A stretch of DNA of 64,000 nt from Escherichia coli (GTDB taxonomy: Bacteria; Pseudomonadota; Gammaproteobacteria; Enterobacterales; Enterobacteriaceae), in NCBI RefSeq assembly GCF_024502345.1, contig NZ_JALDNN010000001.1; one strand, given 5' to 3'. Positions within the stretch are counted from its first letter, which is position 1; every line of letters begins with the position of its first letter. Position numbers and translations under genes: made by a program. Positions 12,523 to 13,872 of the stretch are shown one piece after another. Under the pieces are notes generated by a model. That model saw only the letters and a program-made list of their open reading frames with translations. It made no database searches and had not been told where the DNA came from.

Positions 12523-12779
12523 TCTAAAATCCTCGGAGATGTGATCTGCCCGGCATTAAACCGCACAGATATAAAAGTGAAAAAGGGGGCCATATGCAGG
12601 CCCCCTAACCAAACGTGTACTACCTGGTCTATAAGGGCTCTCCCCCTTCATATTTCGCGCCGCAGATGCGTTATCTTCGCTCGCTCATCCCGGTCACTTA
12701 CTGATGTAAGCTCCCGGGAATTCTCGAGCTTGCCGCCTTTCTGCAACTCGAACTATTTTGGGGGAGTTATCAAGCCTTA

Positions 12780-13505
12780 TTACTCAGCTTCTACGAAGCT
12801 TTCTTCCGCCTGGGAAGCCAGATCCTGAGAACGGCCTTCACGTACGGTTGCAGCAACAGCGCCCAGGTACAGGGTCACAGCACGGATTGCGTCGTCGTTA
12901 CCCGGGATAACGAAGTCAACACCGTCCGGATCAGAGTTGGTATCAACGATAGCAAATACCGGAATACCCAGGTTGTTTGCTTCTTTGATAGCAATGTGTT
13001 CGTGGTCAGCATCGATTACAAACAGAGCGTCCGGCAGACCGCCCATGTCTTTGATACCGCCCAGGCTGTTTTCCAGTTTCTCCAGCTCACGAGTGCGCAT
13101 CAGCGCTTCTTTCTTGGTCAGCTTTTCGAAAGTACCGTCCTGAGACTGAGTTTCCAGGTCTTTCAGACGTTTGATGGACTGACGAACGGTTTTCCAGTTA
13201 GTCAGCATACCGCCCAGCCAGCGATGGTTCACGAAGAACTGGTCGCAGCTCAGAGCAGCGTTTTTCACCGCTTCGCTTGCAGCGCGTTTAGTACCAACGA
13301 AAAGGATTTTACCTTTGCGAGAAGCAATCTTGTTCAGTTCAGCCAGAGCTTCGTTGAACATCGGTACAGTTTTCTCAAGGTTGATGATGTGAACTTTGTT
13401 ACGCGCACCGAAGATGAACGGCTTCATTTTCGGGTTCCAGTAACGGGTCTGGTGACCGAAGTGAACACCAGCCTTGAGCATGTCGCGCATGGAAACAGTT
13501 GCCAT
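12780..13505 (-). CDS. rpsB: 30S ribosomal protein S2
   Basis: 241-aa product from the internal ATG (plus-strand cat at 13503..13505); the ORF-track 307-aa N-terminal extension is rejected. Confidence 0.97.
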
Positions 13506-13700
13506 GATTAAAACCTCTATATAAAAGTTGGGGTTATGCCTCCACGTATCCCATATTACCGACCCCAAAGGGCACCCCGGAATATGTGCCGATACGTGTG
13601 TGTTGTTACACAAAGTGAGATTGTCGCTTCCGTCCAGTCTGTGTATACGAAATGGATCGGAAGTCCGGCGCGCTTTATACCACAAATACGTCATGGACAC
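13506..13700 (-). promoter_or_regulatory. rpsB 5' leader region (the tff small-RNA locus in K-12)
   Basis: Roughly 370-bp non-coding gap between divergent map and rpsB; position corresponds to the structured rpsB leader used for S2 autoregulation; boundaries not determinable by eye. Confidence 0.35.
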
Positions 13701-13872
13701 CAATAATTGTTGGCGCTGTGTACAGCATCAGACGTTGAATTTTCTATTATAGAAAACGTTCAGTGGCACGTTTGGCGAAATTCAGAATGATTCTCAATTT
13801 GCCCGGGTGTGATACCATTGACGGCACTTACATATATATTGTCGGTATCACCGACGCTGATGGACAGAATTA

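Follow-up and report, generated by a model that had tools for sequence, protein, structure and literature searches.

The long spacers on either side of rpsB in Escherichia coli: probable control regions of the tff-rpsB-tsf operon, one of them enlarged by an apparent ERIC/IRU insertion

In a stretch of 64,000 nucleotides of Escherichia coli (contig NZ_JALDNN010000001.1; here called the window), the gene rpsB for ribosomal protein S2 is separated from tsf by 257 bp (12523..12779) and from the divergent gene map by 367 bp (13506..13872), which raises the question of what these two spacers contain and whether their length is out of the ordinary. Both lengths had been given in a first-pass annotation made from the letters of the window, and both are exact when taken from the list of open reading frames (ORFs) and the sequence. 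The analysis presented here points with high probability to the two spacers being control regions of the tff-rpsB-tsf operon, which contain a known leader, an attenuator, an inserted ERIC/IRU repeat and a match to the Rfam family CssrA that is a composite of repeat and attenuator. Every element is of a known kind, and the whole is ordinary E. coli biology. The outcome is a correction of annotation rather than a discovery: tff is the rpsB leader, and CssrA is half an ERIC copy joined to the rpsB-tsf attenuator.

The first-pass annotation had called both spacers unusually long, and in their own neighborhood they are. Among about 43 spacers counted by hand in the equivalent 50-kb region of K-12, with a median of roughly 60 bp, 367 and 257 bp rank second and fourth. 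They are not unique, however, since folK-yadN (369 bp) exceeds the first and both folK-yadN and pyrH-frr (291 bp) exceed the second, and great length is usual for the map-rpsB spacer. The latter was seen in a set of 80 orthologous Enterobacterales loci among the matches listed, with one genome per species; Salmonella, E. albertii, and E. fergusonii were not among these loci. The map-rpsB spacer measured at least 296 bp in all 80, and because it was never shorter, a long spacer at this position is the norm across Enterobacterales. The rpsB-tsf spacer was 160 bp or less in 51 of the loci and 240 bp or more in 12, and therefore only the 257-bp spacer is atypical for its position.

The reason for this was found within the species. 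A 421-nt query across the rpsB-tsf spacer was covered in full in 4,094 genomes (the long allele), while in about 1,330 genomes the match was split in two and the span was 298 rather than 421 (the short allele). The genomes with the short allele include APEC O1 and an O25b:H4-ST131 strain, both of which we take to belong to phylogroup B2. When the short allele of strain AR_451 was aligned with the window, the flanks were identical and the boundaries of the insertion were exact, with 133 nt in the long allele standing in place of 10 nt of the loop of a hairpin at the rpsB stop. Because the short allele (134 bp) aligns co-linearly, the 10-nt loop included, with its counterparts in Citrobacter, Kluyvera, Pseudescherichia, Enterobacter, and Klebsiella, it is the ancestral form and the 133-nt block an apparent insertion. 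It is mainly this insert that makes the spacer long (257 bp as against about 134 bp). Partial termination had been named for this spacer; the attenuator is present, but it does not by itself account for the difference in length, and the repeat had been overlooked. In the internal control region of an essential, highly expressed ribosomal operon, a mobile repeat is thus polymorphic, being present in about 75% of the complete E. coli genomes and missing from about 25%. This amounts to a natural experiment on whether such repeats change the S2:EF-Ts expression ratio.

Judged by its sequence, the 133-nt block is an ERIC/IRU element. A profile of the repeat matches 123 nt of it (12643..12765). Its inverted terminal arms (12640-12666 and 12740-12766) are 27 nt long and 74% complementary, perfectly so over the 7 nt of the tip, and 12688-12719 form a central hairpin (a 14-nt hairpin in the inverted-repeat scan). 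With the primer sequences as printed in 233 papers, the reverse complement of ERIC1R was located at 12704..12725 (GAGAATTCCCGGGAGCTTACAT) and ERIC2 directly adjacent to it at 12682..12703 (CAGTAAGTGACCGGGATGAGCG), each with 3 mismatches where 0 such sites are expected in shuffled sequences. In 5,425 E. coli genomes a 158-nt query of the repeat matched between 2 and 16 places each, with a median of 10. Five other, non-orthologous copies, in yjbE-yjbF, hsdM-hsdR, mobH-ardC, ybhJ-ybhI, and pgk-fbaA, are all intergenic; they can be aligned over about 125 nt and have a palindromic core in common. The traits described for ERIC sequences are a length of about 127 bp, 7-bp terminal inverted repeats (TIRs), a terminal TA and duplication of the target, an RNA that forms a long stem-loop, and transcription together with the neighboring genes (PMC2229807; PMC3184786; PMC10969869). 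In length, core, palindrome, dispersal and presence or absence among strains, the rpsB-tsf copy agrees with the family. It shares with ERIC/IRU sequences (Sharples & Lloyd 1990; Hulton et al. 1991; Wilson & Sharp 2006) the imperfect palindrome, the intergenic location, the multiple copies, the core, inverted repeats at the ends, and the variable presence, and it differs from them in having tips of its own, in showing no visible TA duplication and in replacing 10 nt of its target. The tips are perfect 7-nt inverted repeats, CTCCCCC/GGGGGAG, and not the TATACCC/GGGTATA of the family. The RefSeq record of K-12 does not annotate this ERIC copy.

The RNA of the 257-bp spacer folds with -109.2 kcal/mol (z = -6.9 against shuffles), and the fold is dominated by an imperfect hairpin of about 150 nt that starts from the stop codons. 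This exceptional stability, the position directly behind a highly expressed gene and the tips, which are perhaps remodeled to G/C runs like those of the terminator arms, might suggest a dedicated structure that evolved in place, such as an RNase III site or an mRNA stabilizer, instead of a mobile repeat. Such an origin is highly improbable. The sequence belongs to a family with about 10 members per genome, spread over unrelated spacers, and it is matched by the ERIC primers; about 1,330 E. coli genomes and the nearest genera lack it; and related copies entered the same spacer independently in both orientations. Dispersal, primer matches, polymorphism and independent insertions together refute an in-place origin.

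Among the orthologous loci listed, the repeat profile matches the rpsB-tsf spacer in nine lineages and in both orientations: E. coli, C. youngae, Buttiauxella, Entomohabitans, LSJC7 (weakly), a Pantoea metagenome-assembled genome (MAG), and three Erwinia. Clean TA-flanked insertions were found at other TA sites of this spacer in C. youngae, between hairpins A and B (described below), and in Buttiauxella, in the loop of hairpin B. Related repeats thus appear to have entered the rpsB-tsf spacer independently in at least eight lineages other than E. coli. The profile also matches the map-rpsB spacer of three Citrobacter and one MAG (loci L010, L012, L014, and L067; about 1063..1268) and the tsf-pyrH spacer of Yersinia, Xenorhabdus, and LSJC7 (loci L020, L051, L061, and L063; about 3260..3530). 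Because matches occur in many lineages and in three spacers, the spacers of this operon can be regarded as recurrent landing sites.

Three observations on repeats stand beside these. Among the chromosomes listed, those without the rpsB-tsf copy (such as APEC O1 and ST131) have 2-4 repeat places and those with it 8-14, which suggests a difference in ERIC load between lineages. Between the terminator and tsf, Mangrovibacter and Siccibacter (L017 and L024) carry another insert, about 100 nt long and with the ends TATACCC...GGGTATA, for which the ERIC profile is negative. In Hafnia paralvei (L041) an insert of about 60 nt with UAUACCC...GGUAUA ends occupies the site used in E. coli, the loop of hairpin A; here, too, the ERIC profile is negative.

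Without the repeat, the ancestral spacer folds at minimum free energy (MFE) into four hairpins, A, B, T, and D. Hairpin A has the form AUAAGG...GCUC-loop-GAGC...CCUUAU, with the UAAUAA stops of rpsB within its 5' arm. The sequence TAATAAGG at the rpsB stop is invariant among the orthologues, CCCTTA of the 3' arm is nearly invariant in Enterobacterales, and Morganella has a compensatory AGAG/CUCU in the stem. For hairpin B, 90% of the cells are paired among the orthologues; the Erwiniaceae have a hairpin of unrelated sequence, CAGAUGUAAUCUG, at the equal position. Hairpin T is an intrinsic terminator, 12606..12584 followed by TTTTT, the stem of which consists of 8 pairs (7 G-C) and is a perfect 8-nt inverted repeat. 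It is kept in 78 of the 80 orthologues, with double-sided changes in 5 of its 8 pairs. Hairpin D has 11 pairs, 5 of which show compensatory double changes when RNAalifold is run on an unfitted MAFFT alignment of 20 Enterobacteriaceae, and may be functional. It is followed by the Shine-Dalgarno sequence of tsf, around which CCGAGGA is invariant in 50 orthologous spacers.

In 78 of the 80 orthologues a covariance model of A, B, and T gave exactly one match, which lay at the rpsB stop. In the resulting alignment 95% of the cells pair and 12 of 25 pairs have double-sided changes, a result reached by 0 of 500 shuffles; slid controls pair at 33-71%. RNAalifold on the raw MAFFT alignment of 50 spacers, which is gappy, recovered the terminator only in part, and the covariance-model alignment was used in its place for A-B-T. 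Two Rfam matches in this spacer, SAM-III and CPEB3, had E values of 1-5 and were taken as chance. The partial termination between rpsB and tsf expected in the first-pass annotation can be assigned to the terminator T and its T-run. Like S2 autoregulation and the transcription start site (TSS) discussed below, it is known from the literature: the monocistronic rpsB mRNA ends at an attenuator ahead of tsf, which about one third of the transcripts read through (PMC2834685). The tips of the ERIC copy (12640..12648 and 12760..12766) resemble the adjacent terminator arms (12583..12606), and its 3' tip AAGGGGG is complementary to the 3' arm CCCCCUU of the terminator.

The following course of events would fit these data. 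The ancestral 134-bp module consists of hairpin A with the stops, hairpin B, a strong but leaky terminator, and hairpin D just before the ribosome-binding site of tsf, and the leaky attenuator, according to the literature, sets the rpsB:tsf mRNA ratio. An ERIC/IRU miniature transposable element would then have entered the loop of hairpin A, nearly doubling the spacer. In this way hairpin A would have become the base of the stem-loop of about 150 nt, co-transcribed as the 3' untranslated region (UTR) of rpsB, with its base helix intact. The ERIC copy may be tolerated, neutral, or a modulator of mRNA stability. In Yersinia, ERIC sequences at the 3' end of genes contain an RNase E site that destabilizes the upstream mRNA in an orientation-dependent manner, according to the accounts given of De Gregorio et al. 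2005 in PMC2229807 and PMC10969869. The rpsB copy is like these in lying directly after the stop, in being co-transcribed, and in having a stem base that a terminating ribosome could open. By analogy, such a ribosome might open the base of the stem and expose an RNase E site. In Yersinia the effect was shown experimentally.

The search of both spacers with covariance models, which had been suggested as the check on their content, gave positive matches in each. In the rpsB-tsf spacer the match was one that had not been anticipated, to the sRNA (small RNA) family CssrA (RF02798). It is full-length, with 136.2 bits against a gathering score of 93, and the matched stretch combines the ERIC copy's right half with hairpin B and the stem of the terminator. 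On the short allele, which lacks the ERIC copy, the model scored 53.6 bits, and in no other genus scanned was the threshold reached. The table of Peng et al. 2011 places cssrA between map and rpsB. The supplement to the same paper lists tff separately at 180656-180791; for cssrA it gives 181544-181784 as the intergenic region and 181738 as the end predicted from a terminator. Because 181544-181784 is the rpsB-tsf spacer, the map/rpsB label is a slip, and the real place of cssrA is between rpsB and tsf. The locus described here therefore agrees with the family in its full-length match; it differs in that the annotation of the family speaks of an sRNA gene located between map and rpsB, whereas the match is here a composite of half an ERIC copy and the attenuator in the rpsB-tsf spacer.

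It was assumed by the original authors that CssrA is an independent, trans-acting sRNA gene transcribed from a promoter of its own within the rpsB-tsf spacer. Northern blots of Shigella flexneri 301 showed an RNA of about 100-110 nt, for which these authors "predicted" a separate start site; the family is typed as "Gene; sRNA" in Rfam; and some transcripts of K-12 start upstream of tsf (SMRT-Cappable-seq; 10.1101/262964). The 3' end, however, comes from a terminator prediction only, and the 5' end was computed from the size of the band (Peng et al. 2011). The Northern probe maps to 12669..12690, within the repeat, with one mismatch, and cross-hybridization is possible. The 5' half of CssrA is a dispersed repeat and its 3' half the attenuator of an operon, about a quarter of E. 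coli genomes lack the locus, and the model stays below its gathering score outside the long allele. No promoter-like site was called in the rpsB-tsf spacer by a sigma-70 scan, a crude one that missed the rpsB promoter as well. An independent gene is decidedly unlikely on these grounds. CssrA is most likely a 3' fragment of the rpsB mRNA; as we infer it, the fragment would be released by cleavage within the top of the ERIC stem or close to it and would extend to the attenuator.

Two further Rfam families, V_AS5 (Vibrio RNA AS5) and Ysr49 (Yersinia sRNA 49), gave weak, full-length matches to every ERIC copy tested (L004-L008, L012, L035, and L051), which suggests that several "sRNA" families, these two included, are transcripts or copies of ERIC. 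In the Yersinia similis locus (L051), the Yersinia sRNA Ysr224 (RF02770) was matched upstream, at 84..190, with 124.5 bits.

The position of the rpsB stops within hairpin A allows a further proposal, namely that read-through into tsf depends on the translation of rpsB and is coupled in this way to S2 autoregulation. A ribosome at the stops in hairpin A (1:2) would free the 3' arm GCCCUU for pairing with the terminator 5' arm GGGGGC (helix X, 2:3), and formation of the terminator (3:4) would be delayed. This would resemble the leader-peptide attenuators of trp and his, where there are likewise three overlapping helices (1:2, 2:3, and 3:4), the last one being a terminator and region 1 lying under the ribosome; in rpsB, however, the "leader" would be the stop codon of a full gene and the middle helix is weak and without covariation support, so that it is a resemblance only. 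In nearly all Enterobacterales the 5' arm of hairpin A includes the stop codons, and helix X, enclosing hairpin B, appears in the MFE structure of nascent-RNA prefixes. Spacers of the Enterobacter type, which lack hairpin B, have a contiguous helix X of 8 bp (CCCUUAUU/AAUAGGGG), and in Morganella all four arms change coherently; both observations are suggestive only. The three mapped repeat insertions all lie in loops and spare helices A, X, and T, and repression by S2 has been reported to lower the bicistronic mRNA through lost coupling of transcription and translation (PMC10931766). In the full RNA, however, the terminator is always part of the MFE structure and helix X never is, even with 15-18 nt masked after the stop; a simple equilibrium (thermodynamic) switch was rejected for this reason. 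Helix X can pair in 97% of the sequences, but shuffled and slid controls do equally well, in either register, and there is one double-sided change. Pairing of a C-run with a G-run is expected beside any GC-rich terminator, Rosenbergiella is without the A/X/T arrangement, and Rho-dependent polarity in untranslated rpsB explains the published data without helix X. We consider a translation-sensing attenuator unlikely. If it were real, transcription of tsf would report the state of rpsB translation.

Several points weigh against the preferred reading, in which the two spacers are control regions and the rpsB-tsf spacer combines an attenuator with an ERIC insert, CssrA being a probable fragment of the transcript. 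The repeat has odd tips and is without a clean TA duplication, and its insertion is an event reconstructed, not seen. The alignment behind the pair counts for A-B-T was fitted to the model, and there is little variation in most of the stem columns. The efficiency of termination, the ends of CssrA, and any effect of the repeat rest on literature or inference. Finally, the silence of a crude promoter scan is weak evidence against an internal promoter between rpsB and tsf, upstream of which, as mentioned, some K-12 transcripts start. What this analysis itself shows is where the elements lie, which families they match, that the insert belongs to the repeat and is polymorphic, which allele is ancestral, and that the hairpins are conserved.

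In the map-rpsB spacer there is no departure from published biology. A structured leader that responds to S2 had been expected here, and the Rfam scan matched t44 (RF00127) with 83.5 bits against a gathering score of 44 over model positions 1-95. The match stops 28 nt before the rpsB ATG, and the family lies at the same offset in nine of nine orthologous loci scanned (66.8-89.9 bits), reaching Yersinia, Photorhabdus, Proteus, and Erwinia. Compared with t44/tff as described (RF00127; Aseev et al. 2008; Fu et al. 2013), the position is the same, the match is full-length, and no difference was found, the layout being that of K-12; this leader is the type member of the family in E. coli. The RNA interacts with S2 and is the operator for autogenous repression (Fu et al. 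2013, PMC3616713; 2024 review, PMC10931766), the mechanism of which is described as unclear since the ribosome-binding site lies outside the structure (PMC3616713; PMC10931766). The annotation of tff in the K-12 leader was likewise borne out: "tff, putative small RNA T44" at K-12 189712-189847 corresponds to 13667..13532 of the window. Because it begins at the operon TSS, placed at K-12 189712 by SMRT-Cappable-seq (10.1101/262964), tff is the first 136 nt of the 162-nt rpsB leader.

Conservation in this spacer was profiled with an alignment of 61 distinct sequences. Column identity is at least 90% over nearly all of 13620..13506, which comprises t44 and the GAGG of rpsB, and conservation is poor in the first 45 nt of the leader. 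The block TTTGTGGTATAAAGCGCGCCGG (13685..13664), with the extended -10, a discriminator, and the TSS, is conserved at 90% or more, as is the block ATTATTGGTGTC (about 13712..13697), which contains a weak, -35-like TTGGTG. The discriminator within the promoter is the GC-rich GCGCGCC. The simple sigma-70 scan of 11500..14000 called no promoter and missed the real rpsB promoter because its -35 is weak; promoters were placed from conservation and the published TSS instead. Transcription from the extended -10 promoter would thus produce the 162-nt leader from about 13667. According to the literature, excess S2 binds this leader, in its conserved part, and represses translation of rpsB; with coupling lost, less bicistronic mRNA is made. 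The remainder of the 367-bp spacer would serve the divergent map promoter, and the conserved blocks next to map presumably are its promoter and leader.

Between the two divergent promoters there is a near-perfect 23-bp palindrome, AAATTCAGAATGATTCTCAATTT (13778..13800), which may be a protein-binding or transcription-factor site; its CAAATTGAGAATCATT block is common to Citrobacter, Kluyvera, Pseudescherichia, Enterobacter, and Klebsiella. A 55-nt block at 13746..13800 that seemed specific to E. coli was rejected, as the CAAATTGAGAATCATT part is conserved and had been misaligned in the first profile. About 45 nt (roughly 13720..13765) are without a counterpart in the nearest genera.

It might also be asked whether the spacers contain small protein-coding genes, since mechanical ORFs of 29-32 codons overlap the rpsB-tsf spacer and others of 56-74 codons lie over the map-rpsB spacer on the opposite strand. 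A ribosome-binding site was seen for none of these short ORFs. Those in the rpsB-tsf spacer sit inside a repeat that is missing from many strains, and conservation in the map-rpsB spacer follows the RNA and promoter blocks and not a reading frame, which leaves such genes with next to no probability. The features described are collected in Table 1.

Table 1 Features of the rpsB region, in positions of the window
Feature	Positions	Strand	Basis
tsf	11671..12522	-	ORF list and sequence
tsf Shine-Dalgarno sequence GAGG (tsf ATG at 12522..12520)	12531..12534	-	Sequence
Hairpin D (AUCUGUGCGGU-UUAAU-GCCGGGCAGAU), between terminator and tsf ribosome-binding site	12544..12570	-	MFE folds
Intrinsic terminator T/attenuator: stem AGGGGGCC/GGCCCCCU, 7-nt loop, U-run	12580..12606	-	Terminator scan, inverted repeat
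Rfam CssrA (RF02798) match: ERIC copy (right half), hairpin B, and terminator stem	12585..12694	-	Covariance model
Hairpin B (GACCAGG-loop-UUUGGUU)	12607..12629	-	MFE folds
Hairpin A 3' arm AGCCCUUAU, now base of the long repeat stem	12631..12639	-	Folds, allele alignment
ERIC/IRU copy, 133 nt, in place of 10 nt (ACGCTCGTAC) of the hairpin A loop	12641..12773	-	Allele alignment, profile
rpsB double stop UAAUAA (12782..12777) and hairpin A 5' arm AUAAGGCU (12780..12773)	12773..12782	-	Sequence, folds
rpsB (ribosomal protein S2, 241 aa)	12780..13505	-	ORF list and sequence, comparison with E. coli genomes
rpsB 5' UTR, 162 nt	13506..13667	-	K-12 tff, published TSS, conservation profile
rpsB ribosome-binding site GAGG	13517..13514	-	Sequence, conserved block
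t44/S2-interacting leader RNA (Rfam RF00127)	13533..13619	-	Covariance-model match
rpsB promoter	13664..13712	-	Sequence, conservation, published TSS
Extended -10 TGgTATAAA	13682..13674	-	Read from sequence
Map-proximal conserved blocks GTGTGATACCATTG (13806-13819) and TATATATTGTCG (about 13836-13849)	13806..13872	+	Conservation profile
map	13873..14667	+	ORF list and sequence

rpsB starts with the ATG at 13505; the ORF list gives a TTG at 13703, which is only a mechanical extension of the frame. In K-12 the layout is the same, with rpsB at 189874-190599, tsf from 190857, and the end of map at 189506. The rpsB-tsf spacer has every base in common with K-12, and 239 of the 241 residues of S2 are identical, the substitutions being D82N and D127E (window 12783..13505, minus strand). 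A query of 1,601 nt (12400..14000) matches 5,424 of 5,426 complete E. coli genomes at 99% or more; the best identity is 99.9%, and 100% is reached in no complete E. coli genome. The pyrH-frr spacer, which exceeds the rpsB-tsf spacer in length, lies at 10508..10798 of the window (291 bp). Elsewhere in the window, the HtrA 5' UTR thermometer of Rfam (RF02700) was matched on the minus strand at 21776..21821, upstream of degP/htrA, with 77 bits against a gathering score of 52.

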